A DNA stretch of 64,000 nt from an uncultured virus (IMG/VR IMGVR_UViG_3300023033_000001) (taxonomy: Duplodnaviria; Heunggongvirae; Uroviricota; Caudoviricetes): IMG/VR virus record IMGVR_UViG_3300023033_000001; one strand, written 5' to 3'. The notes beneath the pieces were generated by a model that saw only the letters and a program-made list of their open reading frames with translations, ran no database searches and was not told the DNA's origin. The translations under genes were made by a program, and so were the position numbers. Below, piece after piece: positions 6,987 through 63,771 of this stretch. Positions within the stretch are counted from its first letter, which is position 1; each line of letters begins with the position of its first letter.

Positions 6987-7034
6987 AGTTACACGATCAT
7001 AAATCCAACGGGATAAAGCCAGTTGGTAGTTCAC
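6987..7034 (+). mobile_element. Degenerate 48-bp IS200/IS605-end mini-element
   Basis: Follows TTCAC; contains a CCAACGGGA-TAAA-GCCAGTTGG hairpin and the TAGTTCAC terminus. Confidence 0.6.
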
Positions 7035-7124
7035 AACAAATAATCAAGAGTTTCATGAGGTACATTCTCCGTGAAGCGGATTATTGTGATGACTTTTAAT
7101 CAAAACCAAAGGTAAAAAGTTTTT

Positions 7125-7415
7125 ATGACTACAATTTTGCGTTCGCACAAATCATTAACAGGAGAAGACGTTATGCTTATCAAGAAAGAAACCAACAAGA
7201 AAAAACACACACCCGTACAGGTTGAAATGGTTGACCATGGTTCTCTCGCACATTATTTAGCGTTGGAGGGTTACTCTGCAGCTGAACTGAAAGTTCCTTT
7301 TGGCAACACATCTAATCATGAACTTTCAAACGAATCCTTTGAAGACGCACGTTCGGGTATTGCGTCTGTTGTTCGTAAAGCCTTGTCAAACTATAAGAAA
7401 CAGAGTGTGAAGTAA
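7125..7415 (+). CDS. Hypothetical protein
   Basis: 96-aa ORF downstream of a GTGGTGCTG box. Confidence 0.6.
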   Translation: MTTILRSHKSLTGEDVMLIKKETNKKKHTPVQVEMVDHGSLAHYLALEGYSAAELKVPFGNTSNHELSNESFEDARSGIASVVRKALSNYKKQSVK

Positions 7416-7418
7416 TCC

Positions 7419-8162
7419 ATGCAGTACGTTTACCGAGACAGCACAGGTGCTTTGGAAGCACATAGACGTAATCTTAAAGGGTTCGAGTTGTGTCTATGGG
7501 AATTACGCATCGCCGATACTGTAATGTATCCGCTGTCTAACCTTGCCCGCATCTTAGGGTACAGAAGAGTACAGGGGTTAAAGATGCTTCTGTCGCAAGC
7601 CCCTGAATTTCTTCTCACGATGGACGATGCGTTTCGTCCATACCTTCTTGATCGTATTGACTTCGACGCCTTTGAACCGACGTTTGAGGAGTTTGTTTCC
7701 GAACTTAATTACTTGGTTCCAGACGATATGTGTGAGTTCAAAAAGCGTTCCTGCTTCACGACAGTAGACGGAATCATGTTCATCTTGTCGCATAACACAA
7801 TGACATCAGATCGCGTGAAAAAAGCTCTGTGTAATGTACTGGGCATAGAACGTAAAATCATTTGTCCTTCGCGTCCGGAGACGCATTTCTATGATCGGAT
7901 ATGCTCAATGCTGTCACAGTGGGGATATAGGGTCGAACGACAGTATGCAGTAGGTACCTATCGCCTTGATTTCGCTGTATTTAACGAAGACGGAAAGTTC
8001 AAGTGTGCCGTCGAGTATGACGAACCAGGACACCGATGGTACGATGAAGAAAAGGAACATGAACGTCAGGCATACCTAGGTAGGCATCACATTCGCGTTA
8101 TTCGCGCAGACCTTAAAACAAAGCCAGAAGCCTTGTGTAAAGCAATCATAGACATAAGATAG
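7419..8162 (+). CDS. DUF559/Vsr-like PD-(D/E)xK nuclease domain with a BRO-like N-terminus
   Basis: RQYAVGTYRLDFA...VEYDEPGH...DEEKEHERQAYL..IRVIR. Confidence 0.75.
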   Translation: MQYVYRDSTGALEAHRRNLKGFELCLWELRIADTVMYPLSNLARILGYRRVQGLKMLLSQAPEFLLTMDDAFRPYLLDRIDFDAFEPTFEEFVSELNYLVPDDMCEFKKRSCFTTVDGIMFILSHNTMTSDRVKKALCNVLGIERKIICPSRPETHFYDRICSMLSQWGYRVERQYAVGTYRLDFAVFNEDGKFKCAVEYDEPGHRWYDEEKEHERQAYLGRHHIRVIRADLKTKPEALCKAIIDIR

Positions 8163-8183
8163 ACAGATCGTGGGTAAACATAA

Positions 8184-10985
8184 ATGAGTCTTGAGAACTA
8201 CAAAAACAGCACGTTTGTTAAAGCAGTACTTGCTATTGGAACGTACCAATTTGACTTTACGCGCATGAAAGCCGTACAGAGTGTGAACCTCATGCAGAAC
8301 GTCTCCACAAGTTCTAAGTCCGGTATGGCTTCCGTAGATGGTACTATTACTGTAGTCGATTACTACGAAGACTTGTTTACTCTGTTGTCCGTTGTTGCAT
8401 CCTCTAAGAAAGACGCAAATCTTGAAAATCTCGTAAATAACGTTAATCGTCCTGCCGTATCCTCAGGCAACACACCATATGGTATAGCCGCCGAAGGAAA
8501 CTTCGGTACTATGGCAATCGGTATAAAATGTTACAGTGGAACACGTGTGTGGTTTCTGAATGTTACAGGATGGTCATATAGCATGGGTACACCGTCCACT
8601 GTCACATTTCAACTGAACATGAACTCGTCAGGAAATATGGGCAACACGTATCAGTCGTTGAAGGACTTTCACATGCTTGACTTCGGAAGCTCCCTCGAAG
8701 GTTCAAACATGTCTTACGACAAACACAAGCAAGCCATCCAGGATGCCATAAATTCACTGCAACCAACAGAAAGAAGTACTGACGGGACTCTTAACGAACC
8801 TTCTTTAGCGTCCATGCCTGACCAGTCATCTCCAAATATGTGCCGTGGTGTAGTTGGTGAGCGTTATTCAGAGCCTGAGGAAGTTTTCAAGGCGTTTAAA
8901 GACCTGTATAACGTTGATGTTCGCTTTGCTTCCTGTCTGAAAGGTACGGACAAATTATTCACGTTAGAAGAATGGATTTCTGAATTAAAAAAAGAAAAGA
9001 AGAAATTTTATTTCAGAAACGGTATGTACGAGTTTGTCGTACTGAACAGTTCGGCAAATGCTTCTTCTGCATCATCCATGTATGAGAGAGAATTTAGCAA
9101 CATCATTGACAATTTATTCGCTGCAAAAGAAGGGTTAGAGTCTGTTTCAGACATGTCAAAGATCCCAGAATCTGATCGAGAGATTTACACACCACGTAAG
9201 GATGTGAACAATTCAGGATCGTACCTGGTTGCTGTAAGAAATGACGACGAGTCATTAACTCCGGCTGATATGGAAGGAACCGATTTATCGTTAGACCGTG
9301 TCGTGTTCCTTTACAACGCTCCAAAACCATACGGATTATGGAATAACAAAGTAGCCATACCGTTGGATTCAGTGTCTTCTACTGTTGACAGCAGTTTTTT
9401 AATGAACGTAAATTTCGATGTTCAAGATACGCCTAATGGAACAATGGTGTTTACGCCTAGCGGTCGTTTTATGGCAAACGACAATGCAACAAGCACCTAT
9501 ATGAGACTCGCAATGATTGCACTCAGGAACAATACCGCTGGTGCAAAAGTTCAAATAACTTGCAGAAATTTCATCCATTGGGGTGACGGACTATCACAGT
9601 ATGCTGAGATTTACAGTTACACAAGTAATGGTCTTGCAGGTGTAGTGCAAGGGTTTTATCGTGTTGAAAGCGTTGCATTTCAATGGTCAGGAGGGGTTGT
9701 TTCAACCTCAGTACAGTTGGTCAATATGCCAACAGCATTGGAACAAAACGCTACGAATGCAGTCAGAGGCGGAGGTTCCAAAATTGCTGGAGCCCATGAC
9801 GCAAGTGCATTACAAACACAAACCGGTATCATCAAGTCGTTGCTCAACTCTTCTGTAGAGGGAAGCAGTGACGGAACGCCTTCTGAAGATTATGTTTCGT
9901 CTGAAGATAGAGGCGAACCCGATAACGATGGAGGAAGTATGGCTTCAAGTGCAAATTTCTGTTCGTATCTGTGCTCTAGTTACGCGAATCCAGTTCCCGT
10001 CTCCGTAGACAGAACTCCTGAAAACATTAAAAATGGTAAATTCGACAAAGCCATTGATGAACTTCTTTCTTCTGTCGGTACAAAAAGAGTTTTGGATGTG
10101 TCATCAGACTGGTTCAAGAAATACATTCTCGAAGAATGCAACATGGCACTTCTCGGTTTGCTTGGAGGTGCAGGTAACTGGGGATTCTCAAACGTCCCAA
10201 GTGGAGTACTTGACTGTATGACTTTGTGCAAAGACGGCCAAGTACGTAAAGGATGGGATGAACCTGATGAAAAGCATGGAAAGGGACTGTTCGATTACAA
10301 AGTTGGAGGACTCGGAATTGCCCATTTCGATTCTGGTGCATTGTACAACATTTATCGTTTAATAGGATTCCCTGCGAAGTACGCCACAAGAGAAATGCTT
10401 AACCTTATATTCTACGCAAATGCAAATAGTGCAGTATGGCAGGATATGAGTGACGGAAGCGGACGAAAAATTCCATACCTGGATAACGGCGGAAAGTGCA
10501 TATGCGACTTCAACGGTATGGGAAAAAATGCTTCAAAACGTTCTGGTCTCTCCGCAAGATTTTCTGCGTCCAGTCCTTTTCCTTCAAAACCGTGGCAGGA
10601 TTGGGCACATGAAATTCTGTACGCACAAAACAGTGATGGCTCTTATCCGTATCAGAGGATTCTTTTCAGATATTGGGTTGACAATTTCTGGATGGAACAG
10701 CGTAACAGACTCAAGAATGCAACACTAAACGACATCTTCTGCATTGCACGTATCTCAAATTCTGTACCTGCCGTAGCATATACATGCTGTAAGCGTGACG
10801 GAACAGCGGTAGCTCCAAAAGCACAGTATAACGCATACTGCGTTGAGTATGCTAACACACGTGGAAAAACAGAAGAAGAAAAAGAAGAAAAAAGAGCTAG
10901 ATATGCACGCCAGCTCGGAAATGGTCGCCGTGTCGGGGATTTGATTGGTTACTTCTATTCACAGAAAATGATCAAGACACTCTAA
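8184..10985 (+). CDS. Probable baseplate hub with a C-terminal extension, possibly a lysozyme-like domain
   Basis: GFYRVESVAFQWSGGVVSTSVQL resembles the gp27/VgrG hub beta-barrel end; S/G-rich linker; GGLGIAHFDSG in the C-terminal domain. Confidence 0.5.
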   Translation: MSLENYKNSTFVKAVLAIGTYQFDFTRMKAVQSVNLMQNVSTSSKSGMASVDGTITVVDYYEDLFTLLSVVASSKKDANLENLVNNVNRPAVSSGNTPYGIAAEGNFGTMAIGIKCYSGTRVWFLNVTGWSYSMGTPSTVTFQLNMNSSGNMGNTYQSLKDFHMLDFGSSLEGSNMSYDKHKQAIQDAINSLQPTERSTDGTLNEPSLASMPDQSSPNMCRGVVGERYSEPEEVFKAFKDLYNVDVRFASCLKGTDKLFTLEEWISELKKEKKKFYFRNGMYEFVVLNSSANASSASSMYEREFSNIIDNLFAAKEGLESVSDMSKIPESDREIYTPRKDVNNSGSYLVAVRNDDESLTPADMEGTDLSLDRVVFLYNAPKPYGLWNNKVAIPLDSVSSTVDSSFLMNVNFDVQDTPNGTMVFTPSGRFMANDNATSTYMRLAMIALRNNTAGAKVQITCRNFIHWGDGLSQYAEIYSYTSNGLAGVVQGFYRVESVAFQWSGGVVSTSVQLVNMPTALEQNATNAVRGGGSKIAGAHDASALQTQTGIIKSLLNSSVEGSSDGTPSEDYVSSEDRGEPDNDGGSMASSANFCSYLCSSYANPVPVSVDRTPENIKNGKFDKAIDELLSSVGTKRVLDVSSDWFKKYILEECNMALLGLLGGAGNWGFSNVPSGVLDCMTLCKDGQVRKGWDEPDEKHGKGLFDYKVGGLGIAHFDSGALYNIYRLIGFPAKYATREMLNLIFYANANSAVWQDMSDGSGRKIPYLDNGGKCICDFNGMGKNASKRSGLSARFSASSPFPSKPWQDWAHEILYAQNSDGSYPYQRILFRYWVDNFWMEQRNRLKNATLNDIFCIARISNSVPAVAYTCCKRDGTAVAPKAQYNAYCVEYANTRGKTEEEKEEKRARYARQLGNGRRVGDLIGYFYSQKMIKTL

Positions 10986-11132
10986 CAAGGTCATCAAGCA
11001 ATCACGCGTTTCTCATACCTGACGATTGTTCTTATACCACAACAAAACATTATGGCAAAAACCCGCACCATGAACGAAACTGATCAACCATCTGAACACC
11101 AAGCGATGATGCACCCGTCTGACGTAAGATTT

Positions 11133-11207
11133 AACGACAGCCAATCTTTGAGTGGTAAAAACGTAGTAGAGTTTCAAAAACTCGATCAAGAGCTACGGGT
11201 CAGTTTA
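11133..11207 (+). repeat. Remnant of the reRNA-like scaffold found in the 47019-47359 element
   Basis: aacgacagccaatctt...gtaaaaacgtagtagagtttcaaaaactcgatcaagagctacgggtcagtt aligns with the reverse complement of about 47054-47136. Confidence 0.8.
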
Positions 11208-11486
11208 CTCCCAAACCCATCTTGTTTTCGTGTGTGCAGTCACCTCTTCACGCTTTTTGTGCTCAAGCTGTCTCACTGACGCGATGTTATACTCATAAAT
11301 TTTACGAGACACAACCATCGCAAAAAAGTTGCTTGATCCGATGTCTCCACAATCCGCGAAGTGTTCAGCCTCGCTAAAATTATCGAAATAGCGAGTCTTA
11401 GTCTCTCTGCGAGATTCACCGTTTCCGTCGCTGTAAGAATGAGAAATCTCGACGATCACCTTCCATAATTTTGTTGCATTTTCCAT
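11205..11486 (-). CDS. Hypothetical protein
   Basis: ORF with an AGGAG SD; last gene of a minus-strand small-gene cluster. Confidence 0.65.
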   Translation of the reverse strand: MENATKLWKVIVEISHSYSDGNGESRRETKTRYFDNFSEAEHFADCGDIGSSNFFAMVVSRKIYEYNIASVRQLEHKKREEVTAHTKTRWVWE

Positions 11487-11500
11487 TGTGCTTTCTCCTG

Positions 11501-11917
11501 TTAAGTTTTGTTTGCAAGGGATGTGATTTCATCCAATGCCGTTTCTATTGCCGACAATCCTTCCTTATCGTTACCATCGTATGTCTTTAGTCTGAGACGA
11601 ATATCATCCACGAGTGTTTGTATCTTATTGTCTTTTGCTTGAGCGTTCTTCCTCCCACGTGCCTTATCAATTTCATCTTCAGAAAACTTAGCACGCATAC
11701 ACCATTCGCAATAATCGTATCGCATCATATAGCCACCCTCGAACTTACAGATTGCCATAAGATACTCTTCTCCATCTTTAATCGTGTTGTGGCAATAAGG
11801 ATGTTCTTGGTTATAAGCATTATCGCATTGCAGATACGTAGCATTTTTCTTGGATCTAAAAGTCTTCACGCTTAGCGTTTCTTTCTTCACGCTTAGCGTT
11901 TCTTTCTTTTCCATCAC
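11501..11917 (-). CDS. Hypothetical protein with Cys motifs and a 7-aa duplication
   Basis: KKETLSV twice (21-bp tandem duplication at 11864-11905); C...C...CEWC. Confidence 0.65.
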   Translation of the reverse strand: MMEKKETLSVKKETLSVKTFRSKKNATYLQCDNAYNQEHPYCHNTIKDGEEYLMAICKFEGGYMMRYDYCEWCMRAKFSEDEIDKARGRKNAQAKDNKIQTLVDDIRLRLKTYDGNDKEGLSAIETALDEITSLANKT

Positions 11918-12073
11918 CGTTTTCCCATCCGGCAGTCATGTTTCGGTTTCCACAAAAGCTCTGCCGTTTTCAGTTTCCCAAGAATCGTGTGATAAACACC
12001 ATCCTCTGAAACAGCACTTTGTGGAATAAACAGGTTGTAGTCGCCTCGCTTTTTCGAGCGAAACTTTACCTCG

Positions 12074-12367
12074 TTAAACTTGCCCTCCATCAGCAATAAA
12101 CTGCATCACGGCTTTTCGAGCAAGACCTTTACGCCTATGCTCAGGCATAACATAGATGCCATTGACATACTTGTCGATGATCATGAGAAATCCAACAGGC
12201 TTACCCTCACACATGATAAGTCTATACCCGTCCGAGTCCACAGACCATTTACGCAGGTCAGGAAAACATAGCTTATCAATGGTTTCTCTGAATGCAAGAT
12301 ACATCTCTTGTTCAAGGTTATCATCCAAAATGCTTTTTAGCAGTTCAAAATTTTGTTCTGGAATCAT
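12074..12367 (-). CDS. GNAT-family acetyltransferase
   Basis: IYVMPEHRRKGLA acetyl-CoA-binding motif A. Confidence 0.8.
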   Translation of the reverse strand: MIPEQNFELLKSILDDNLEQEMYLAFRETIDKLCFPDLRKWSVDSDGYRLIMCEGKPVGFLMIIDKYVNGIYVMPEHRRKGLARKAVMQFIADGGQV

Positions 12368-12690
12368 ACGGTGAACTCCTCCTCATAAGAAGACCATCCT
12401 GTCCATCCCATCGTCGAAGGTGTGAATAAATTTGACAGCTCTTCAGATGACATAAGAATTGGTATTCCTTGTTTAGTATGACGTAACACCCTTAACTGTA
12501 CTGTCAGTGCCTGTCCACGGAACATCTCGTCAGAAAGGTCGTTTAGGTAGGTTTTCTTTAAGGTGTTGACCACTGTTCTTACCTCTACTTCTGTTTCAAA
12601 CGTGAGTCTTCCAGTCTCATACACGAAACCATCCTCATAAGCCACGGTTTGGATTAACTCGTAACCTTTACTTTTATCAGACATATTCAC
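12364..12690 (-). CDS. Hypothetical protein
   Basis: Overlapping start/stop coupling with its neighbours. Confidence 0.6.
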   Translation of the reverse strand: MNMSDKSKGYELIQTVAYEDGFVYETGRLTFETEVEVRTVVNTLKKTYLNDLSDEMFRGQALTVQLRVLRHTKQGIPILMSSEELSNLFTPSTMGWTGWSSYEEEFTV

Positions 12691-13343
12691 TCCAATTCTA
12701 CGGCATTGATAAGCAGCTCAGAAATTGAGGCTCCGGTGTCAGACACTTCGTCCCGTCGAAACTCGGCATCCTCAAGAGATACAAACACCTCGTGAACCAT
12801 TTTATTGGTGAAATGGTCTTTGTAGTTAAGGCGGTAAAGAACAGAATGTGCATAATCAGAAACAAACAAAGGCGTAGGTGACTCATGACGTTCTTCAAGA
12901 TAGAATGAACCACATGAAAGATTCATGTGGACATGAACCATACCTTTATCGTCACTACAGTCCTCAAAAGAAGCACACAGAGGAAAGATATGGCTAATAC
13001 GTATACGGTATCTCAGGGTTCCTGATGGGTGACAAACACACAAGGTTCCAGATGCTCTTGAAGACACTCCTGAATAGTTAATATCCATCCATTTCTGCAA
13101 TATTTTTGCAGTCTCAGTCGATACCGTGGTTATTACTTTCATCTCGTTCGCATCACATCCTGAAGTCTGACTAGATTTTAAAGTACATAAAGACTCAGAA
13201 TTATCCGTACTGAAATGCCAGTCAACACAGTTCAGTTTTGCACATAACTTTCCTTCTACGATTCCTGGGATTTCCTCAAGCGTCAGAACGCCATGATCTT
13301 CAACCGATGTACTTTTAGAAAATATTCTTCCACAACCACTCAT
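12687..13343 (-). CDS. Hypothetical protein
   Basis: 218-aa ORF with a GGAGG SD. Confidence 0.65.
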   Translation of the reverse strand: MSGCGRIFSKSTSVEDHGVLTLEEIPGIVEGKLCAKLNCVDWHFSTDNSESLCTLKSSQTSGCDANEMKVITTVSTETAKILQKWMDINYSGVSSRASGTLCVCHPSGTLRYRIRISHIFPLCASFEDCSDDKGMVHVHMNLSCGSFYLEERHESPTPLFVSDYAHSVLYRLNYKDHFTNKMVHEVFVSLEDAEFRRDEVSDTGASISELLINAVELE

Positions 13344-13419
13344 TTCTCAACCTCCCTCAAACAGTAACATCCACACACATACGTGGTAAATATGGTTTTT
13401 CTTGATAAGCAGCGTTACG

Positions 13420-14385
13420 CTAAACCGTGTCTTTCCACGTTTTGTATGACACAAGCCAGTCCTTCGGTTCAACATTACCGCGTTTCGCGAGCCATCTCTC
13501 AGCCTCCGTAGGTTCAAGACGTTCTCCTATCAGTTTGTCTAATGCCGCATAGTCTTTCAGAATGAGGCTGTACAGAATGAACTTCGGCCTGGTTTCATCC
13601 TTTTTCGGTTGCCAGTCGTCGATGATTTTCTTTGCTCTTTCCCTCGTATACGTGATGTCTGGAATAGCATACTGCTTTATATTGTCCTCTCCATACACGA
13701 TGAAATCATACGGTTTTACGTTTGCAGATAATCTTGCGATAAGCGAAACACAGGGTTTCGGTTCATATCCAGCCTTTTTCTTTTCGAGATAGCTGTACAG
13801 CGTTTCATAGTCAACGTAAAACCCTTCTGGAATGTCTATGGACTGTTTCAAAACACTGGGCGACCATGAGAAACATCCCCATCTGAACATACGATTCGGA
13901 TGGTGGTAAACACGCTTTAACCCATAACGCTTTACGAACTCATCGCGTTCAATCTCGTTAGGGATATGCGTTGATGTGGAGCACGTCATTCCTAAACGTC
14001 CGTCATGCCAAAGGTCAAATGCTTTGTCGATGCTTTCTGGCGTATACCGGTCATACGTAATCTTGTAAACCCGTTGTGCCAGCTCTTCGCTCGTCAGAAT
14101 AACGTCGCGTTTCTCTTTCAAAGCATCAGCATACTCAAGTCGAAACGACCAGCACACCTGCTCGTACAGACGGTTCAGTTTTTCCTCTTCGCTAAGACGT
14201 TTGTTCGTCTCATACGTTTCATCCTCTTTTGTCACATCGTCGTCGCTATTGATGTCATCATTCCATTCGTCGTTATTCACATCATAACCACGTTCTTTGA
14301 AGAAACGTTCAAGACGCTTGATTCGCTTCTCCATTTCGTCGATACGCATACCAAGTAAAAGTAACGCTGTTGTCTTTTCGCTCAT
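13420..14385 (-). CDS. Hypothetical protein
   Basis: 321-aa ORF with an AAGGAG SD. Confidence 0.75.
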   Translation of the reverse strand: MSEKTTALLLLGMRIDEMEKRIKRLERFFKERGYDVNNDEWNDDINSDDDVTKEDETYETNKRLSEEEKLNRLYEQVCWSFRLEYADALKEKRDVILTSEELAQRVYKITYDRYTPESIDKAFDLWHDGRLGMTCSTSTHIPNEIERDEFVKRYGLKRVYHHPNRMFRWGCFSWSPSVLKQSIDIPEGFYVDYETLYSYLEKKKAGYEPKPCVSLIARLSANVKPYDFIVYGEDNIKQYAIPDITYTRERAKKIIDDWQPKKDETRPKFILYSLILKDYAALDKLIGERLEPTEAERWLAKRGNVEPKDWLVSYKTWKDTV

Positions 14386-14458
14386 CGTATTTGCTCCTTA
14401 CAAGTTTAAGGTAAGTTTAATGAAACTGCCCACATATGTTGAACACTGCAGTGCACAA

Positions 14459-14698
14459 TCATTCTGGACATCTCCACCAGCAAGAACGTTCCCAATCACG
14501 ACGATCAGGCATACACCCTGACTTAATCACTAATGCATTATACTTAGCGTCAACTTCAAAAGAGTCTTCATTTACATCATAAATGTCTATATCTTCACCA
14601 TAAGCATCACAATCAAAGGCTGTAGCAGGAATCGCATTGACAACTTCTAAATTGCCATCGAACTTCCTAAGAACTTCAATCAGTTCATTCACTGTCAT
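14459..14698 (-). CDS. Small acidic protein (MTVxELI type)
   Basis: MTVNELIEVLRKFD; GAGGAG SD. Confidence 0.65.
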   Translation of the reverse strand: MTVNELIEVLRKFDGNLEVVNAIPATAFDCDAYGEDIDIYDVNEDSFEVDAKYNALVIKSGCMPDRRDWERSCWWRCPE

Positions 14699-14712
14699 GG
14701 TGATTTTCTCCT

Positions 14713-14892
14713 CTAATATTTGTCAGAAATGTCAATAATGACTGTATGACCGTTTACTTTGACATCGCATTCATCGAAGTCCTCAAGGTCTTTCCAACAT
14801 GAGCCATAAGGATCTCCATTCATAAGTTGAATGCGAACCTGTGCACTCAGATCAAGCGAGGATAACTTCTCAATCAATTCTTTTACGGTCAT
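14713..14892 (-). CDS. Small acidic protein, tandem paralogue of 14459-14698
   Basis: Not in the ORF track (59 aa); MTVKELIEKLSSLD...; AGGAG SD. Confidence 0.65.
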   Translation of the reverse strand: MTVKELIEKLSSLDLSAQVRIQLMNGDPYGSCWKDLEDFDECDVKVNGHTVIIDISDKY

Positions 14893-15148
14893 TACATTTT
14901 CTCCTATAACACTGTGTTGTTTATGTATTCTTTAATGCAGTTTTCAACAAATTCTGCTAATTCGTAAGCATACTGCTCAACTTCGTACTCACTGTAACTG
15001 TGCTTTTCAATATCAGCTTTGCTGACCACTGATTGAGCATTAGCTTTTCCAATAATGGGACATCTATTAAACACATCATGCTCTAAGTCTTTAAGAAATT
15101 CTCTGTATTCTTCACGGGTCATTGCTCTTTCTCCCTTGTATACCGTTC

Positions 15149-15550
15149 CTAAAGAAGTTCCCATCCGACCAAATCCTCAGGCAGATGTATTACCATGTGA
15201 GCGTAAAAATCTAACGGCAAACTGCTTACACTGTTTCGAGCATGTTCGACAACACTTTCACCTTCGCAAATGCAGATAAAGTCCATGCCGTCTCCGTCCA
15301 ACGGTCTGTTCATGTTGACGTAACCGTAGATCCATTCTCGAAGAACGTTTGCTTCATGTGACGCATAAGATGGAGATACGTCCCACCCTTTGAAATTACG
15401 CCATTCGATCACATACACGTCACATCCTTCACATACAGAATGACGTATCATGTCCGGTTCACAAGGCTGCATTCTGTCCTGAACGAACATCTTGAAGTCC
15501 TGATAAGCATGTTCCTGACACATCACATAAATGTCATAAAGCACTGCCAT
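15149..15550 (-). CDS. Hypothetical protein
   Basis: 133-aa ORF with a GGAGG SD. Confidence 0.65.
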   Translation of the reverse strand: MAVLYDIYVMCQEHAYQDFKMFVQDRMQPCEPDMIRHSVCEGCDVYVIEWRNFKGWDVSPSYASHEANVLREWIYGYVNMNRPLDGDGMDFICICEGESVVEHARNSVSSLPLDFYAHMVIHLPEDLVGWELL

Positions 15551-15569
15551 ACGCTTCCTCCATTAAAGT

Positions 15570-16004
15570 TCACTGTCCATTAGGAACAACAACAATTTCA
15601 AAGTAACACAACTCGTACTTGTCTGCTGACAGGATGTGGATACCGTCCACTTCAATACTATCTGCAATACCGAACGGGACGACTATAATTGTGCAACATT
15701 CACGAAATGATTCTTCCACAATTCTGCCACATGGCGTGTCCAGAATAAGAAGCTCAGCCATCAGTTGATGTTTGGATTCATCGATCCACAAGTTGACTAT
15801 TTTCCCTGCTACATCTGGGTAATACAAATCAATATTATTTTTATTGTGTTCAGATTGAAGTACGCAGAGCATTCCTTCACGAAATTTATCGTCTTCATTG
15901 AACTGTTTTACGATACGTTCCATAAGACGTTTTGTGTACAGATTCCCTGATTGGAGCACTTTGTCATACCACACACTTTCTGACAAAATACGGTGTTCGT
16001 TCAT
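15570..16004 (-). CDS. T4 gp21-like prohead protease homologue, apparently inactive
   Basis: NLYT..LMER...IDL...I.NLWID...AELLILDTPCGRIV follows the S77 pattern; the usual SH and SSRG positions read AG and VPFG. Confidence 0.55.
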   Translation of the reverse strand: MNEHRILSESVWYDKVLQSGNLYTKRLMERIVKQFNEDDKFREGMLCVLQSEHNKNNIDLYYPDVAGKIVNLWIDESKHQLMAELLILDTPCGRIVEESFRECCTIIVVPFGIADSIEVDGIHILSADKYELCYFEIVVVPNGQ

Positions 16005-16304
16005 TACGCAACTCCTTGTAAGTATAAATGATGTTTAAGATTCTCAGATTGATGCTCCATATGCATGGTTAAAAGTCACGACCTGTTGGGAAGTATATAA
16101 CTTCTTAGTCGTAGAAAAATCCGCAGCACCACGACAAGGAGTGAGTAGTTCGCCTAGTTGACAGAATCTTTGTGTTGCCTTGTGGTGAAGTATAAGACCA
16201 CAAAGGTTTGGGTATCCTCAAAAAGAAAGAGCAAGAAAGCGAAACGCTTTCTTGCTCTTTCGTCAGCTACATATGGATGCATTTACTTGTTAGATAATGT
16301 ACGA

Positions 16305-17272
16305 TTACCGTCTTCCTCTGATTCTGTTTACGTTTCTGCTGTAACGTGTTTCCATGCGAGTACGTTTCTCTTCATATTCGTCATACTCATTATCTTTGAG
16401 AAGATCCTCGACCGCAGAACAGTTGTCTTCCGCCAAATCAATAATGTAATCATGGACGGCTTCACTCATTTCATCGAACATCTTAAACAATTTCTGTTTA
16501 GAGCATGGGATAGTCACCTGCGTATAGAAGTCAAAATCCTCAGTCCACGCTTCTTCAAGATTTACTGACAAGGATTCGAGAATTGCTGAAGTGACATCGC
16601 GTCCACGGTAATCAGACAAATCTTCTGCGGCTTTTTCTACACAATCGTCTACCACGGAATCAAGGTTGTAATAATAACAGCTTAACACATCTCCCTTAGC
16701 ACCGTCTTCAAGACGAACATAGAACGGATTACCTCCGTGATGCTGATTGAAGATATAGCACATCTCATCACTTCTGAGGTCACTAGAAGTATACCTGCCA
16801 CCACTGTACTCTTCAATGGCAACAAGCAAATCCACTACATCATCAATACTATCAGAGACGTATTCTAATTTACGACCTCGCTTGAGATTATATCTATGAC
16901 TTATGGATTCCCCTATCTTTATTTGAGCCTTGCCGTCTTTGAGCATATTGTTCGTTGCATAAGCAACGATGTCGAGTGCCTTAAGAAGAGATGCTTTGCT
17001 GATAGGTTTTCCAGCTTCAACGGCTTTCTTAGCCTTATCGTCTCTTTGTAACGCTTTGCATAAAAATTTGTAACATGCTTTGTCAGCACAATAGAATCCA
17101 TAACCGTAAGCACGTGTAAAACTAAGTCCCATATCCTGAAGCATAGTCACGATATCTTGAGAGTCCCAGGAATCCTCAGTGAGCTCAACCACATTTCCTT
17201 TGACCTTTACGAACACACTGGATGGTAAGTTATTATCAGTTTCTTTTTTAAGGTATTTTTATTGACTAACAT
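16305..17272 (-). CDS. Acidic protein with an Arg-rich C-terminus; the 5' end needs a -1 frameshift or a 1-nt insertion
   Basis: ATG at 17272 with a GGAGGTG SD is one base out of frame with the 303-aa ORF; in-frame A_AAA_AAG at 17249-17243. Confidence 0.6.
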
Positions 17273-17302
17273 TTTTACACCTCCCTTCTACTTGAAATAA
17301 TA

Positions 17303-17590
17303 CTAATTGTCATAGTCATAAGCGTAACACGGGCAGAACCCAGAGGAGTTGATAACTTCTGAACGTGGATTTGAAACGAAAGCTATACGGGTGACAAACT
17401 CTTTTAAAGTCCCATCATTACGTTCCAGGGTGGCAAATACTCCATTACGCTTCTTTACTCTGTACTGAACAGACAACCCAAGTTCATCTGTAATAAGGTC
17501 GTATGGCGTAAGACTGATTATTTGACCCTCAACAAAAACCGATGTACGGCTTTCATCTGTTTTATTCGTTTGTTTGTACGACATGAGCAC
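17303..17590 (-). CDS. Hypothetical protein
   Basis: 95-aa ORF directly downstream of the orphan RE. Confidence 0.5.
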   Translation of the reverse strand: MLMSYKQTNKTDESRTSVFVEGQIISLTPYDLITDELGLSVQYRVKKRNGVFATLERNDGTLKEFVTRIAFVSNPRSEVINSSGFCPCYAYDYDN

Positions 17591-17610
17591 ACCGTAAAAT
17601 AAAGAGAGAT

Positions 17611-17708
17611 GGAACTACCCACCGCCTTTAGGCGGTGGTATTCAAATCCATTAGAATTTGATTTGTACATTCTCACGAATTGGGCTTCATGTTTCATTGA
17701 ACCGTTGA
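17611..17708 (-). ncRNA. Orphan TnpB reRNA (omega-RNA)-like scaffold plus right end
   Basis: Aligns over about 95 nt with 29636-29732 (tnpB 3' end and RE hairpin); no tnpB upstream. Confidence 0.7.
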
Positions 17709-17712
17709 CTGA

Positions 17713-18213: not shown

Positions 18214-18225
18214 ATGAGACACTTC

Positions 18226-47359: not shown

Positions 47360-47364
47360 GTGAA

Positions 47365-53396: not shown

Positions 53397-54194
53397 TTAT
53401 CGAACAGAACGCAACACAAGTTTACGTCCTTCGTTCATTCGATACGAAGCCGAGTCACGAACCCAGTCAACAAATGCAGAAGCGTCCTTAATGTCTTCAG
53501 CTGTTTTGACGGCGGTACCATCAGAGGTAATAACCATCGCCAGAGCATTGTTGTAAGGTACAACGTCTACAGTCAACTTATGAGGCATTCGGTCTTTGTC
53601 CGCATAATTTCCAGAATAAGAAACAAGCGAAGTCTCTGACAGGGATGAGCTATACACCCTTGTCAAATCAATGATGTAATCAGCACATACGCTCTGCACA
53701 GAAGAGTCAATTGCACGTGCGATATTTTGAGATGTTTCGCGAAGATTCGTTGTAAGTGCGGTAACACCAACACCCAAATCGACAGAGTCACCCTGAACAT
53801 CGCTTTCAATGTGACCAACGAGTTCCATATATTCCGAAACCTGTGATCGAACGAAATCCAAGAAACTCTGAGAATCTATACGACTGTTAATGACAGCCGA
53901 AATACCATCTTGACCCTCGATGTGCGTAATGATTCCACCGTTATCCACATCAACAGAAATCACCATTGCAGGTCTGTCATCCTCAGTTCCATCAGACGAA
54001 GACGTAAGAGTGTCTGCATACGCTTTGAGATTCCAGGTTTCAGACCCGTCAGTATGATGAACAATATCCAGCGTAGCATCATTACCACATCCGTTCTGAG
54101 TAAGAATACCATCAATGACCTTCTCCAAGGCCTCACGGGACTCTTCATCCTCAAAGATTTCAGTTGGCTTGTTCACGGTCAGTGATTCCTGCAT
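53397..54194 (-). CDS. Acidic hypothetical protein
   Basis: 265-aa ORF in the tail module. Confidence 0.65.
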   Translation of the reverse strand: MQESLTVNKPTEIFEDEESREALEKVIDGILTQNGCGNDATLDIVHHTDGSETWNLKAYADTLTSSSDGTEDDRPAMVISVDVDNGGIITHIEGQDGISAVINSRIDSQSFLDFVRSQVSEYMELVGHIESDVQGDSVDLGVGVTALTTNLRETSQNIARAIDSSVQSVCADYIIDLTRVYSSSLSETSLVSYSGNYADKDRMPHKLTVDVVPYNNALAMVITSDGTAVKTAEDIKDASAFVDWVRDSASYRMNEGRKLVLRSVR

Positions 54195-54358
54195 AATTTC
54201 TGAATCCGAATCAATGTCACCATGATCAAAACTTTCTTACTTTGGTAATGAAAAGGAACGCTTGATTTCACGACCATAAACATCAGTAAGTGCTTCATTC
54301 TTATGAAGCAGGTTTGTTTCCTTATAGAGAGTAGCCATAAATCTGTCCCTCCATCAGA

Positions 54359-54955
54359 TTACGAGTCAGAAGTGGCAAGGGATACACGTTCAAGACGGTC
54401 ACATGAAAAACTTGCGTTTATTGTCGTGAAACCGCCCTGCGTACCCATCTGTGGAATCTGTAACGATGTTGGAAACAGACCGTAAATTTCCCATGCACGG
54501 ATAACAGAAGCATCAGGTGCAAACACAAACAACGTAGCCGTTGTTTTATAATTCACTGCAAGACCCATCAGTCGGTTTCCGTCAAAATTATAAATCAAAC
54601 GGAACCAGTCAAGAAGAAGATTCTGAACATCATAACCAATGGCATCAATACACGTGATGTTGAAAGCTCCGCCCATCTGCGGGTTCGTAGCAAAGTGCAC
54701 CTGGTCATTACCACGACGTACCGGTGCTGCTGTAACACCAAGCTGAGGAAGACCTACAGACTGAACAGCAAGTCGGATAACTTCCTCATCGACATTCGTG
54801 AAAGAACGACGGGTACTGTTAATTTTATCAGGGAACTGTGTTTTCGGAAGGTCGATTTTAAGTTCCCAATGTGCGTCACGTTGAGGTTCCCAGTTTACAC
54901 TGTTTGAGAAATGAGACGCACCGTAATACTGCGATAATTTTACATTGTCAGGCAT
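54359..54955 (-). CDS. Tail tube protein (T4 gp19-like)
   Basis: AVQSVGLP, LLDWFRLIY, YKTTA.L, WEIYGLFPTS and FS.D; AGGAGG SD. Confidence 0.85.
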   Translation of the reverse strand: MPDNVKLSQYYGASHFSNSVNWEPQRDAHWELKIDLPKTQFPDKINSTRRSFTNVDEEVIRLAVQSVGLPQLGVTAAPVRRGNDQVHFATNPQMGGAFNITCIDAIGYDVQNLLLDWFRLIYNFDGNRLMGLAVNYKTTATLFVFAPDASVIRAWEIYGLFPTSLQIPQMGTQGGFTTINASFSCDRLERVSLATSDS

Positions 54956-54975
54956 GATAAACCTCCTACTGATTA

Positions 54976-56106
54976 CTATTTCAGACGGTTGCGTCCGTTA
55001 TACTTACCAGAAACACCAGGGCACATGCGTGTAAGTTTGACACCGTTTACATGAGCTTCAGTCATGACAGTCATCTGATGATTCTTAGCATAAATGCGAA
55101 TGTCGTTCGGATCTTCATTATTCGATTCCTGCGACAAAATGTCTGGGTTGACGTCCAACACATTTTCTTTCTTGGCATCTTTGTCAGAATCACCTTCGAT
55201 TTTATCCTCAGATTCCGAGAAATGGATATCATCACCGTCAGGAATAACCGAATTATCAGGAATCGCTTCTACAAGAGAGTTCAAATCAGGTACCTGAGTG
55301 TTGATTTCCTCTTCATCTTTCTTTCGTCTTTCAGGTGACTTTGACCACATCATAGCTTCACGAAAAGCACTCGTTGCACTCGAATCATCCGTGAAGTCTT
55401 CGAACTCTTTCGTTTTTGTGTAAATCTTTGCGAAAGGTTGGTCACCGCATTCAACGCAGACATCTACTCCTGCATTGTAAGCCTGCGCACAAACTTTCAT
55501 TGCATCCTGAAGCGAGTCAAATTCACCGCTGTACTTCTTACGTGTAGCTGAATGCTCACGAGTAATACACGACACCTTGTAAATAGGATGGTCATCTTCA
55601 TTTGCCGATGCTTTGCAGATAGAAGAAACCTTGTGCACTTTCTCAGACTTCACTTTCATGCTTATAAGGCGAAGAGATTCAGACTTTCGTTTGCTGAGAA
55701 AGCAAATACGTGACGCTTTCATTGTGTCAGCATTAAGAGTGCCCTCGATACAAATAAGGCAACCTTTCTCAAGCGATTTGAGACAGCTCTCTGCAAGGTC
55801 ACCTTTCGACACTTTAATGTGATAAGTTAAGACTTTTGTTTTATGGTCCTTATCAACAGTCGTGTTCATAACATCAAACATCAACGAACGCTTCATTTCG
55901 AGAGGGCTGCTGATACGACCGATGATGATGTCCTTTGTTCTTGCTTCGACAGCAAGGTCTTCCTCTGTTGCACCCATTGTTTTGCACAGAATGTCGAACT
56001 CTTTTCGGTCTTCTGCTTCAACCAGAGAATCAGAAATCTCTGTTTTTTCATAACGCCGTACCGACATACGCTGCACACTATTTTTATGCTCTCGTTTAAT
56101 AAGCAT
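54976..56106 (-). CDS. Hypothetical protein with a basic leader
   Basis: Start MLIKREHK with an AGGAG SD. Confidence 0.7.
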   Translation of the reverse strand: MLIKREHKNSVQRMSVRRYEKTEISDSLVEAEDRKEFDILCKTMGATEEDLAVEARTKDIIIGRISSPLEMKRSLMFDVMNTTVDKDHKTKVLTYHIKVSKGDLAESCLKSLEKGCLICIEGTLNADTMKASRICFLSKRKSESLRLISMKVKSEKVHKVSSICKASANEDDHPIYKVSCITREHSATRKKYSGEFDSLQDAMKVCAQAYNAGVDVCVECGDQPFAKIYTKTKEFEDFTDDSSATSAFREAMMWSKSPERRKKDEEEINTQVPDLNSLVEAIPDNSVIPDGDDIHFSESEDKIEGDSDKDAKKENVLDVNPDILSQESNNEDPNDIRIYAKNHQMTVMTEAHVNGVKLTRMCPGVSGKYNGRNRLK

Positions 56107-59215: not shown

Positions 59216-59609
59216 CTCCTTTTCGTTGTACAACGTAAAATCGTGCCCGTGCGGGTCAGCACCGATGTGCGCACAACAGGTGAAGACCTTAGATGCACAT
59301 ACGGCACGTAAATATATACGTCAAAATTTGATAAATAAACGTCATGATGTGCTTATGGCTAGGAAACAAAGACACATAAGACTTTCAGACATATACTGTC
59401 GGTCACTCGCCAACAGGTACAATGCGTGTCTCTATGCGATGGTCTTCACCACGAAGACATAGCAAAAAGTTTGTCCAGACACGACCCCTAAATGCATTGA
59501 AATGAGCAACAATGTATGAATCAAACGTCTTATACTGACGCCATTCAGAATCATTAACACGTTTCAGTTCAATCTGATACTTCATTGCACTCAATCCTTT
59601 CAAAAAAGA

Positions 59610-59645
59610 AAAAGCCCGTTAGACAATATTGTCTAACGGGCTTTT
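59610..59645. terminator. Perfect 36-bp palindrome, terminator-like
   Basis: aaaagcccgttagacaatattgtctaacgggctttt. Confidence 0.7.
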
Positions 59646-59671
59646 GATTTCACATAGAAGTAAATCTACAT

Positions 59672-60367
59672 TTAACAACGACGATAACGACGTGTTCTCA
59701 TCGTAGTTTTGCGTGATTCCTTGGCATCTTCTAAGGATTCTTCAAGGTTCTCAATAATGTCGTCAAGTTCGCCACAGACTGAGCTATAAACATCATCAGC
59801 TTCGCCGGACACTTTGTCGTTGTAATACTCAACTTCCCACTGCAAATGTTTCACGCCAATAGCAAATACATTTTCAAAGTCTTCATCTGAATTGATCACA
59901 GGAATGCCGTTGTCCAAAAACTGAACATCATCCTCGAATGAGAGGTCATCAAAAAGATCCGCAAAGGGAACTTCAATTTCATCAACACGACCATGATCGT
60001 TCATGGCATAAGCAACGTCTTCGTCGAAATTGATGTCACGATATTCTTTTGCTTCATCCAGAGCTTCCTGAATAGCACTACGTGAGTTATCTGCGGACAT
60101 GAACGTATGACCTGTAACATCGCTAAGACGCAAAGATTCCGGATAAACCGTATGGAAAATCAGTGAGGTTTCCGTCACATCTTCGAGTTTCATGTAACCT
60201 TCATAAGGAAGTTCCTGACCGATACTGTCTCTTGTGGAAACATAGACTGAATCCCCGTCACTTGAACCACACTGGTCAAATGCTTCTGCCACCATATCGT
60301 AAAAGTCGTCGCGGCCAATCTGCTTACGGCTTTCAAATTTACGTCTATTTCGTTGTTTCTTAATCAT
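59672..60367 (-). CDS. Acidic protein with basic N- and C-termini
   Basis: MIKKQRNRRKFES...KESRKTTMRTRRYRRC; GAGGAGG SD. Confidence 0.75.
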   Translation of the reverse strand: MIKKQRNRRKFESRKQIGRDDFYDMVAEAFDQCGSSDGDSVYVSTRDSIGQELPYEGYMKLEDVTETSLIFHTVYPESLRLSDVTGHTFMSADNSRSAIQEALDEAKEYRDINFDEDVAYAMNDHGRVDEIEVPFADLFDDLSFEDDVQFLDNGIPVINSDEDFENVFAIGVKHLQWEVEYYNDKVSGEADDVYSSVCGELDDIIENLEESLEDAKESRKTTMRTRRYRRC

Positions 60368-62605: not shown

Positions 62606-62612
62606 TTTTACG

Positions 62613-63221
62613 CTATCGTTTACCATAGCGGCTTTCTTGCTTCTGACCAAACATCTCTCCAAACCATTCTTCCATATCAGAAGCATAACTGGAATAGAGA
62701 TTACCATTGCCTTTCACTTTAGTACCTCGACATACTGCAATAACAGGGTATGCCTCATCATAAGTGAGTTGACCTCTGTAAGAGCTTGAGTCTTTGCACA
62801 TTTTCCTTATGGCAACAGCAACAGGCGTGTCATGCCAGTACACGTAAAGACAATGCTGTATTACGTCTTTACGGTTTGAGCATGCCGAAGCATCCGTGTA
62901 ATAAGTTTCAAGTGCAAACCTATGTTCCAGTGAAGACTTTCCGAACAATCGTTCCAAAACTTCGAACAAAGCATCCCACACATCGGTACGTTTTTTGTCG
63001 TTAAGGCACCCGAAAGCGGCCATGGCGTACATATAATCATAAGCATCTAAACCGAGAAGGTTCTCTTCCAACCATTCAGAAAACTCCTGAACTGATTTGT
63101 CACGGAACTTCCATGCGAGCTTCACCAGATACTTAAAATTCTTAAAGTCCGTAGCATTTAAGTAAGAAGCACCTAACGATTCCTTACGAATCAAAGATTT
63201 TCTCTTGTATGTAATAAGCAT
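62613..63221 (-). CDS. Hypothetical protein with a basic leader
   Basis: MLITYKRKSLIRKES...QESRYGKR; AGGAG SD. Confidence 0.7.
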   Translation of the reverse strand: MLITYKRKSLIRKESLGASYLNATDFKNFKYLVKLAWKFRDKSVQEFSEWLEENLLGLDAYDYMYAMAAFGCLNDKKRTDVWDALFEVLERLFGKSSLEHRFALETYYTDASACSNRKDVIQHCLYVYWHDTPVAVAIRKMCKDSSSYRGQLTYDEAYPVIAVCRGTKVKGNGNLYSSYASDMEEWFGEMFGQKQESRYGKR

Positions 63222-63234
63222 ACAGCATCTCCTG

Positions 63235-63618
63235 TTAATCAAAGTTGTTGTTTTCAGGCTCTTCTCCACCTTCCTCTGGTACAGGTTCTTCTCCTTCTGG
63301 TGCAGCTTCTTCACCACCCTCACCACCTGTTTCTTCATCAGAACCGTTACCACTGTCTTCGGCATTCTCAGCTTCAGCTTCTGCAGCATCCAAGTCAATA
63401 CCGATATTAGACAAGGCTTCTTCGATACGGTCAATAACTGCCTCACCTCGTGCAACACGGTCAGACAATGTGGACACAAGTTCCTGCAACTGTGCAAGAA
63501 CCACATCGAAACCCAACGAGACACGGTCAGAAGGCTGACTGTCTTCCATTGCACGTGTCTTCGTCAATGACTTAACGAAATCCTGTGAAGCAATTTCAAG
63601 TTTATCGTTTCTGTACAT
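63235..63618 (-). CDS. Coiled-coil protein with an E/G-rich tail
   Basis: 127-aa ORF with a GGAG SD. Confidence 0.7.
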   Translation of the reverse strand: MYRNDKLEIASQDFVKSLTKTRAMEDSQPSDRVSLGFDVVLAQLQELVSTLSDRVARGEAVIDRIEEALSNIGIDLDAAEAEAENAEDSGNGSDEETGGEGGEEAAPEGEEPVPEEGGEEPENNNFD

Positions 63619-63737
63619 AATGAAATCTCCAAATCATGTGCAAAAGGTGCACATGATTTGACTATTGTGCACCATAGGTTCTTTCTGTTAGATACAAGAC
63701 AGTACTAATCCATATTCTCCCAACCATAATCGCCTTT

Positions 63738-63771
63738 GTGAACTACCAACCGCCTAAAGGCGGTTGGCTTC
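63738..63771 (-). mobile_element. RE hairpin copy
   Basis: GTGAACTACCAACCGCC-TAAA-GGCGGTTGGCTTC. Confidence 0.8.

Follow-up and report, generated by a model that had tools for sequence, protein, structure and literature searches.

Hairpins of IS200/IS605 type and their gene-less derivatives in a 64-kb stretch of a large tailed phage

A stretch of 64,000 nucleotides from the uncultured virus record IMGVR_UViG_3300023033_000001 (Caudoviricetes), referred to below as the window, was analysed for a family of short hairpins that resemble the ends of IS200/IS605 insertion sequences (IS). The window, with 42% G+C, is a 64-kb piece of a large tailed phage of the gut, whose whole genome probably measures roughly 243 kb. 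A greedy set of open reading frames (ORFs) covered about 86% of it, and its genes include those for a tail sheath and tube, an amidase endolysin, an intein-bearing ligase and helicase, and an SNF2 helicase. No tRNA was found in a scan of the window and no Rfam family matched in it at the gathering score; loose Rfam scans returned weak rows at chance level only, the top one being RAGATH-18 at 29710-29777 (25.7 bits against a threshold of 44.9). Related hairpin loci number 18, about one per 3.5 kb, and they mark one IS that carries tnpB only and, besides it, at least 16 gene-less derivatives (Table 1). As set out below, these copies were probably multiplied in the phage, and recently, by TnpA-dependent single-strand transposition.

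Sequences compared

Two sources of related DNA were used. The first was IMGVR_UViG_3300028888_000085 (G001 below), a relative phage of 98.6 kb, estimated to be 38% complete, which is ~77-92% identical in nucleotides (about 87%) to window positions 5045-64000, with many indels and one inversion. The second consisted of contigs, not raw reads, from four DNA runs of one study labelled bovine gut metagenome (X1 to X4). These were compared over window positions 28500-48400, where uncovered parts, such as 43108-44435, are no proof of absence. In the phage record collection, window positions 35764-39545 had no DNA match.

The hairpin family

The pattern CCACNNNC-loop-GNNNGTGG matched nine times where 0.09 matches were expected, and none of 100 shuffles reached nine. 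At up to one mismatch, the right-end tail GGTAGTTCAC matched 18 times, 15 of them on 13 family loci and three outside the family (1063, 21121 and 37685); the left-end leader GCGAGCNGNAAGCC matched four times in the window at the same tolerance. A covariance model (CM), as proposed in the first-pass annotation of this DNA, was trained on 17 window copies and used at a cut-off of E<0.01. It gave 18 distinct loci in the window, 17 being its own training rows and the extra one a half hairpin at 44373-44412, and no further copy there; G001 yielded one locus only (14906-14941), which falls outside its region of homology with the window.

Across the 17 copies, 82.2% of the cells of the 9-bp stem were paired, compared with 72.4% in shuffles (0 of 500 as high), double-sided changes occupied 14 cells compared with 6.9 in shuffles, and slid controls were 34-47% paired. 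Stems range from a perfect 9 bp, as in many copies, down to 6 of 9 paired, which fits the birth and decay of copies. The loop is flipped in about half of the copies (TAAA instead of TTTA relative to the tail). Subterminal hairpins on the same strand and alike at both ends were found in the 341-bp element and in the tnpB IS.

The first-pass annotation had listed these loci from the letters alone. Every one was present where it had been placed and had the sequence described, and the covariation that it had claimed agrees with the counts given above. Three entries were reassigned: 47019 and 47320 belong to one 341-bp element as its two ends, 31112 is the left end of the tnpB IS, and 44391 is a half hairpin. 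The locus called scaffold only (11133) lies in a fragment, 11128-11205, that has no terminal hairpin. A further weak hairpin forms the end of the DUF3846 gene at 18226-18250 on the minus strand (GTGAACTTCACATGCTTTAGGAAGTG), with GTGAAC, TTCAC and a CTTTAG loop containing the stop codon. It scored only E 0.61 in the CM and may be a very decayed family copy.

Table 1. Coordinates of the family copies and neighbouring features in the window (. in the strand column, no single strand assigned)
Feature	Position	Strand	Remarks
Degenerate single-hairpin mini-element	6984-7034	+	After TTCAC
Guide-RNA scaffold fragment	11128-11205	+	No terminal hairpin; strand opposite to that of 47019-47359
Solo right end	17611-17712	-	With 99-nt remnant of tnpB 3' end and guide-RNA scaffold
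Palindromic mini-element	18819-18889	.	Left-end leader on both strands; CM matches both strands
Single-hairpin mini-element	26358-26406	+	After TTGAC
Remnant of Fanzor2/IS607-like tnpB	29204-29361	-	Last ~30 codons and downstream sequence; intact in G001
Direct repeat, copy B	29544-29633	-	Flanks IS; first bases are the TnpB guide region
tnpB-only IS200/IS605 element	29634-31165	-	Left end starts at ~31165, after TTTAT
IS right end	29634-29667	-	Hairpin and tail GGTAGTTCAC, ending at 29634
tnpB	29650-31026	-	TAG stop inside hairpin loop
IS left-end hairpin	31117-31150	-	Decayed left end
Direct repeat, copy A	31226-31315		84% identical to copy B over 90 nt; extends to ~145 nt
Degenerate solo right end	32532-32566	-	About 6/9 paired
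Decayed palindromic form	33587-33634	.	Right-end tails on both strands, long loop
Single-hairpin mini-element	35483-35531	+	Leader, perfect 9-bp hairpin, tail GGTAGTTGAC; follows TTGAC
Structured RNA scaffold, then CRISPR-like array	37470-37821	+	Scaffold ~210 nt, ending in TTTTAGAGGTAGTACAC; 2 repeats, 66-nt period; not a member of the hairpin family
Perfect 38-bp palindrome	43204-43241	.	17-bp stem; right end on both strands
Half hairpin (loop and 3' arm) with right-end tail	44391-44412	+	Right boundary of segment 43242-44412
Solo right end	44928-44961	-	Arms from different stem variants, 7/9 paired
Solo right end	45969-46002	-	Arms from different variants, 6/9 paired
Hairpin with family core and other flanks	46041-46072	.	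14-bp stem
Single-hairpin mini-element	46906-46954	+	Leader AATGATGCGAGCCGCAAACC, hairpin, right-end tail; follows TTGAT; CM 35.7 bits
PATE-like gene-less element, 341 bp	47019-47359	-	Inserted after TTCAC; left end CATAAGGCGAGCGGAAGCC and hairpin, guide-RNA-like scaffold, right-end hairpin and tail GGTAGTTGAC
Solo right end	63738-63771	-	Perfect 9-bp stem CCAACCGCC/GGCGGTTGG; top CM score, 48.4 bits

Placement relative to genes

All elements are intergenic or overlap gene ends and last codons only, so that the claim that they lie between genes or at gene 3' ends holds throughout a largely coding window. The stop codons of several genes, including tnpB, come from the loop (TTTAG or CTAAAG) or from the tail (GTGAAC, GGTAGTT). 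Such a placement would suit stem-loops of the phage itself, kept as terminators or as stabilisers of mRNA 3' ends, in the way that the repetitive extragenic palindrome (REP) hairpins of E. coli stabilise upstream mRNA. This is nevertheless very improbable. An intrinsic terminator consists of a G+C-rich stem followed directly by a T-run, and no T-run was found after the stems, the tail being GTAGTTCAC. Within 26000-45999, a total of 14 terminators was called against a shuffle mean of 14.4, and the only family hairpin called terminator-like there was 26379-26399, marginally. Orientation relative to the neighbouring genes is mixed. Ordinary A/T-flanked terminators are conserved between the window phage and G001, but no family locus is kept at a matching place in G001, so nothing points to long-term domestication. 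The earlier suggestion that the hairpins were possibly domesticated as terminators is accordingly not supported.

Cellular relatives and target pairing

The pattern AAGCCCAC-N10-14-GTGGGTAGTTSAC was run against 185,579 species genomes and gave at least 120 loci in very diverse Bacteria and Archaea, with Methanothrix, Bathyarchaeia, Nitrososphaerota, Lachnospiraceae, Saprospiraceae and others among the matches listed. For 32 loci at least 2200 bp of upstream sequence was available: a TnpB ORF ended at the hairpin in 18, five of which also had a Y1 TnpA (Pfam on upstream ORFs), and 14 were solo copies. By tblastn, the window TnpB matched 15 of the 120 cellular loci listed, a low yield explained by the divergence of the TnpBs and by the many loci truncated at contig ends. 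Cellular copies with both tnpA and tnpB carry at the left end another hairpin, weaker than the first, GGCGGAAACCCAC...GTGGGAGGAGC, of the same design as the phage leader GGCGAGCGGAAGCCCAC...GTGGGTAAGCGAGCC. With the stop codon of the phage tnpB in the loop and the same hairpin ending cellular TnpB genes, some of them beside a Y1 TnpA, the identification made in the first-pass annotation was upheld: judged by its sequence, the hairpin belongs to the ends of a canonical IS200/IS605 subgroup that is very widespread, and the right-end hairpin is also the predicted terminal stem-loop of the TnpB guide RNA. No Rfam family matches this right-end hairpin subgroup. In IMG/VR, the 14-mer GGTGGGTAGTTCAC matched 128 times at 127 loci; only six had the hairpin arm CCCACC just upstream, and the remaining matches look like chance.

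In the model for IS608, the cleavage site is recognised through pairing with a guide located 5' of the hairpin foot. Among 78 distinct cellular right ends, the base before AAGCC and the S of TTSAC switch together, with G and TTCAC in 37, C and TTGAC in 36 and five exceptions (73/78; Fisher p 1.5e-18, not corrected for relatedness). The left ends in the window follow TTGAT, TTGAC, TTCAC, TTTAT or TTTGC and, read by eye, six of seven obey the pairing rule against the flanking pentamer: GAA goes with TTCAC at 47359 and 18829 (plus strand), CAA with TTGAC or TTGAT at 26358 and 46906, and AAA with TTTAT at the left end of the IS and with TTTGC at 18889 (minus strand). Covariation of the transposon-adjacent and transposon-encoded motifs (TAM and TEM) with the guide has been described for IS200/IS605 elements (PMC10055086). 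The right-end hairpin with its G/C switch provides a simple marker for annotating the subgroup and for predicting its target motif, TTCAC or TTGAC.

The transposase was searched for in 193 ORFs of the window (56 main ORFs and 137 stop-to-stop frames of at least 76 aa, with 55 shorter frames outside the scan). No Y1_Tnp match was obtained, in line with the earlier statement that the window has one tnpB and no tnpA, and no Y1 TnpA was found in the 98.6 kb of G001. The enzyme would therefore come from the remaining ~179 kb of the phage or from the host, and we infer that it acts in trans.

Gene-less copies

The 341-bp element and the four ~50-bp forms (6984, 26358, 35483 and 46906) retain both the left-end leader and the right-end tail, as palindrome-associated transposable elements (PATEs) do, which bears out the PATE-like derivatives proposed in the first-pass annotation. 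Pfam searches of frames of at least 76 aa inside the PATE-like copies gave no hit. With only one kind of end left, the solo right ends and the palindromic forms were classed as fragments, not PATEs.

The limits of the 341-bp element were fixed by contigs at CATAAGGCGAGC...GTAGTTGAC. Its right end is of the CAAGCC...TTGAC subtype, unlike that of the window's only tnpB IS, and its last 46 nt match right ends of cellular IS copies. The single-hairpin element 46906-46954 is present in an X2 contig spanning 46725-47018. In contigs of X1 and X4, 65 other letters stand in place of 35483-35531, whose loop supplies the stop codon of ORF 34907-35515. The palindromic element 18819-18889 overlaps the 3' end of the amidase gene (18859-19545, minus strand), and the stop codon of a glycosyltransferase gene (32715-33590) lies inside 33587-33634.

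The 99-nt remnant in 17611-17712 is 84-85% identical to 29636-29734. This copy abuts an unrelated ORF, 17713-18222, whose homologue in G001 is located elsewhere; the ORF had been considered as a TnpB fragment and was rejected as such on examination. Positions 219-306 of the 341-bp element, taken on the minus strand, have a counterpart of 83% identity in the scaffold fragment 11128-11205. The fragment lies in one boundary (10982-12095) of the inversion, in which block 12096-19536 is inverted relative to its neighbours when compared with G001 85440-91943. The palindrome 43204-43241 forms the left boundary of segment 43242-44412. The right ends 44928 and 45969 bracket a gene with a RelA/SpoT domain (44953-45972, small alarmone synthetase-like), which sits in a 3.5-kb region where G001 has 1.3 kb of other sequence. 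At the place of 63738-63771, G001 has 792 bp of other sequence.

The tnpB insertion sequence

The IS ends 16 nt past the tnpB stop codon, at ...GAAGCCCACCGACTTTAGGCGGTGGGTAGTTCAC. The tnpB product has the Pfam domains Cas12f1-like_TNB, OrfB_IS605 and HTH and aligned over its full length with ISDra2 TnpB in PDB (E 5e-55), including the RuvC D/E/D and zinc-finger motifs. The protein looks catalytically intact from these motifs, and the 3' end of tnpB overlaps a predicted guide RNA whose end coincides with the right-end boundary. An attempt to infer the host from TnpB similarity was given up, as identity peaked at 36-37%, in two of five genomes.

The IS, which is absent from G001, is flanked by a direct repeat that is single-copy in G001 and in contigs of relatives and corresponds to the start of a small gene (MDLKMEGFIGN...). 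The right end of the IS abuts the start of the repeat, which in G001 follows TTTAT; the left end lies 140 bp into the repeat, after another TTTAT-like site. This arrangement suggests that IS copies, inserted in different lineages at two TTTAT sites close together, recombined unequally and thereby gave rise to the duplication.

The TnpB guide region, CAAACAAACGTGAGAA..., has a 25/25-nt match in G001 directly 3' of TTTAT, and in the window's own duplicate of it the preceding letters are CTTGT, not TTTAT. Together with the apparently intact catalytic motifs and with an element-free allele, TTCAC|GTTAG..., that coexists in the sampled populations, this match would suit an RNA-guided homing or exclusion system in which TnpB and the scaffold-bearing copies cut the element-free alleles of rivals during co-infection. 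TnpB homing and PATEs that encode guide RNAs have been published (PMC10055086), and the logic of phage homing endonucleases has been reviewed (PMC13565253). Such a system is unlikely here. A match between guide and empty site is inherent in every IS605 element and so is not evidence of a function at phage level, and TTTAT as TAM is based on two sites only. The right-end subtype of the 341-bp element differs from that of the window's tnpB, which leaves cross-use putative, and the ~50-bp forms have no scaffold. From their sequences, a role as guide source is possible only for the three copies that keep a scaffold (29634, 47019 and part of 17611).

Recent movement

At the places in G001 that correspond to the window loci, no family hairpin was present. 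Empty sites, clean or nearly so, were found there for 46906-46954 (flanks abutting apart from a 3-nt ambiguity), for 18819-18889 (precisely absent), for 47019-47359 and for the tnpB IS. Contigs of X1, X2 and X3 join 47018 to 47360 and skip exactly 47019-47359, with flanks at least 99% identical to the window; in X2 record 13, the flanks across 47018/47360 differ by 3 and 0 letters. The empty allele TTCAC|GTTAG, set against the filled one, TTCAC|CAT...GTTGAC|GTTAG, defines an insertion 3' of the pentamer without target-site duplication, in keeping with a family whose elements also lack terminal inverted repeats. The empty-site alleles that the first-pass annotation had asked after were thus found, both in the contigs and as gaps in G001.

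The ends of the IS were also found at another site in relatives. Joints were observed from 34441 to 29634 (X2 and X4) and from 31167 to 34444 (X1 and X4), the alternative site being read as CTTTT(A/G)T|, which is TTTAT-like. A joint from 29804 to 31117 (X1) represents a derivative without tnpB, and one from 29633 to 31354 with 41 other letters between (X1 and X4) a form without the IS.

Copies of the family have moved recently. Decayed copies do occur (32532, 33587, 7034 and the left end at 31112) and, with no TnpA found, could be taken as dead IS fossils without recent activity. This is extremely improbable: within flanks of at least 99% identity the 341-bp copy may be present or absent, contigs of relatives have the IS ends at another site, a tnpB-deleted derivative exists, and the window has 18 loci, many with perfect stems, against one in a relative that is ~87% identical. 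Since empty sites exist, the copies are not mere fossils. Lack of such sites, which the first-pass annotation had named as one mark of plain fossils, is contradicted by empty sites in near-identical flanks.

Element borders and mosaicism

Several borders between the window phage and its relatives coincide with elements. The segment 33587-35531 (three ORFs) is bracketed by elements, and G001 has ~100 bp instead. Segment 43242-44412 lies between two right ends, beginning immediately after the first and stopping at the second; contigs of the four runs hardly cover it (depth ~0 over 43108-44435), an X2 contig diverges at 43242, and the match of an X3 contig begins at 44411. Further breaks were seen at 46069 and 46109 in contigs of X2, X3 and X4, and one at 35486; all of these lie at element edges. 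In 44928 and 45969 the two arms are of different variants, as a crossover in the loop would leave them, and 44391 breaks off at the loop. The 84% identical 90-145-bp duplication at the IS is the expected product of unequal recombination between IS copies. Repeated stem-loops named PeSLs are documented in phages (PMC2839356, PMC4122927).

From these borders it could be argued that the repeats are mainly portable homologies or hairpin break sites that shuffle phage gene cassettes, with their transposon origin secondary. We regard this as possible but doubtful. Among 12 large non-homologous segments relative to G001 (at least 300 bp), an element lay within 60 nt of only 4 of the 24 boundaries, and the proposal that every mosaic junction carries a hairpin was rejected on that count. 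No family element was found at the boundaries of inteins and other indels relative to G001. Moreover, an insertion absent from a relative makes a breakpoint by itself, and if the arms of 44928 and 45969 are swapped, the number of paired positions rises only from 13 to 16 out of 18, a hint at most. Some of the mosaicism may be due to the repeats, but most of it is not explained by them.

LAGLIDADG inteins or homing-endonuclease inserts were noted in the DNA ligase gene (19661-22069) and in a helicase/terminase-like gene (22228-25569). The inserts, at ~19999-21154 and ~23275-24326, have no match in G001.

A scaffold-plus-array RNA and a second TnpB-like gene

Outside the hairpin family, the window has one locus in which a structured RNA scaffold is followed by a CRISPR-like array, against six in G001 (near 21767-22225, 59478-59729(-), 64532-64850(-), 74063-74571, 83021-83470 and 95998-96660). 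At its 3' end the scaffold has TTTTAGAGGTAGTACAC, a sequence similar to the right-end tail of the family. Compensatory changes across six copies were found in 9 of 50 predicted pairs of its helices, with a fold z-score of -3.25. The arrays consist of ~36-nt repeats and ~30-nt unique spacers with a 66-nt period; because the spacers are unique, Tandem Repeats Finder misses them, whereas a general repeat search detects them. A mismatch scan with the repeat gave 24 matches in G001 (one of them a stray 9-mismatch match outside the arrays) and two in the window. In the predicted fold, the end of the scaffold pairs as an anti-repeat with the first repeat, so that the order would be scaffold, anti-repeat, repeat and spacer, as in type V single-guide RNAs.

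The matching loci at window 37690 and G001 64532-64628 carry different spacers. The G001 spacer 83371-83400 and window 44238-44263 agree in 24 of 26 positions, and the window site has a T-rich stretch, TTTTTTC, just upstream. The matched site is at the start of ORF 43246-44250, in the segment that is absent from G001 and almost uncovered in X1-X4. At the place of 26358-26406, G001 (74052-74559) has a scaffold plus array of ~500 bp, and a remnant of the last array repeat (GTATACCTATGAGAC, opposite strand) persists beside the mini-element at 26338-26352. Likewise, at the place of 6984-7034, G001 (96006-96669) has 663 bp of scaffold and a seven-repeat array.

Searches for cas1, cas2 and a known family at these loci found none, and Rfam gave nothing on scaffold plus array. 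No other contig in IMG/VR had the repeat or the scaffold, and the largest array of G001 had no DNA match in the collection of isolated phage records. The three large neighbouring proteins (904, 558 and 933 aa), compared with PDB by sequence, gave no Cas12 or TnpB match. G001 does encode an intact TnpB-like protein of 559 aa at 53855-55534 on the plus strand, with mimivirus Fanzor2 L79 as best PDB match (E 1.7e-27) and 25% identity to the window TnpB.

These features could be combined in one scheme, in which sibling jumbo phages carry alternative RNA-guided weapons of the TnpB family against each other and the arrays and the hairpin network represent stages, either competing or successive, of a transposon-to-CRISPR transition inside phages. 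The window phage would contribute an ISDra2-like TnpB and a swarm of IS605 mini-elements, with guides matching element-free alleles of rivals; G001 would contribute a Fanzor2/IS607-like TnpB and six scaffold-array loci with the layout of a natural single guide in type V order. Mini-elements would have replaced arrays at two places, and the match between spacer and window gene is imperfect. The scheme is speculative and we hold it to be quite unlikely. The array-bearing RNA may outrank the hairpins in interest.

Discussion

The hairpins of the window are best explained as ends of IS200/IS605 elements and of gene-less derivatives spread by the single-strand 'peel and paste' route. A Y1 TnpA, supplied in trans, would recognise the hairpin on replicating phage DNA; a short guide triplet just 5' of the hairpin would pair with a target pentamer (TTTAT, TTGAT or TTSAC), and insertion would take place 3' of that pentamer without target duplication. 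The one-hairpin forms would, most simply, be copies collapsed by deletion between two near-identical hairpins. It is proposed that insertions elsewhere are lethal to the phage, so that the copies that persist are confined to gaps between genes and to last codons. Once dispersed, the repeats would also act as short homologies for recombination between phages.

Several observations weigh against this explanation, which we nevertheless consider probable. The mover enzyme was not found in the ORFs of the window or of G001. The left end at 35483 breaks the pairing rule, and the empty sites of G001 are 3 nt off the ideal TAM|flank junction in two cases. At most sites G001 has other sequence, not a clean gap, and the evidence from populations consists of contigs of four runs of a single study, not raw reads. 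The flip of the loop in about half of the copies is not explained by simple transposition. Finally, the one-hairpin copies may be immobile products of collapse, and their status as TnpA substrates is putative.

The family offers a system for asking how single-strand transposons exploit replicating phage DNA, whether TnpB homing biases inheritance in co-infection, as homing endonucleases do, and how far such repeats drive phage mosaicism.

Comparison with known systems

PATEs, gene-less derivatives of IS200/IS605 elements, have reportedly been studied in Haloquadratum. In Geobacillus stearothermophilus they accompany ISGst families, and some carry guide RNAs used in trans (Meers et al., PMC10055086). 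As in the window, PATEs have no protein gene, family hairpins at both ends and, in some copies, guide-RNA scaffolds; they are presumably served by TnpA in trans and occur alongside tnpB-only elements. Unlike the published ones, the window copies are in a phage, at about one per 3.5 kb, and most measure 34-70 bp, are single-hairpin or palindromic, and reside in a replicon from which no TnpA is known.

Elements of the ISDra2/IS608 type share with the window a TnpB homologous over its full length, insertion 3' of a similar pentamer without target duplication, and a guide 5' of the hairpin foot that pairs with the cleavage site. The TAM of ISDra2 is TTGAT. The window IS differs from ISDra2 in the lack of tnpA, an IS1341-like arrangement, and from the ISDra2/IS608 type in its right-end hairpin, which belongs to the pan-prokaryotic subgroup without an Rfam match.

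REPs and bacterial interspersed mosaic elements (BIMEs) of proteobacteria are likewise numerous, short, intergenic single hairpins with a conserved motif next to the stem, and the tail of the window copies contains GTAG. REPs are chromosomal, tied to a domesticated single-copy gene for a REP-associated tyrosine transposase (RAYT) and not linked to TnpB. No Y1_Tnp match, and hence no RAYT gene, was found in the window or G001.

PeSL cassettes of T4-type phages resemble the window in having repeated stem-loops between genes at the boundaries of indels and replacements that separate close relatives (PMC2839356, PMC4122927). PeSLs are native promoter-plus-terminator motifs, whereas the window hairpins are transposon ends with target rules and have no terminator or promoter signature. 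Viral miniature inverted-repeat transposable elements (MITEs) are non-autonomous IS200/IS605 copies with TnpB-only partners and no TnpA, as here; they are described from ascoviruses and baculoviruses, with 10-bp terminal inverted repeats, and not from phages or as hairpin-ended mini-forms (PMC6004678).

A literature search, supplements aside, returned no paper on a dense family of IS200/IS605 mini-elements in a phage. To our knowledge, phage genomes are usually regarded as nearly IS-free. The kind of element described here is known; a dense and still mobile set of them in a phage is unusual, and is notable for its density, its very short one-hairpin forms and the population-level evidence of movement.

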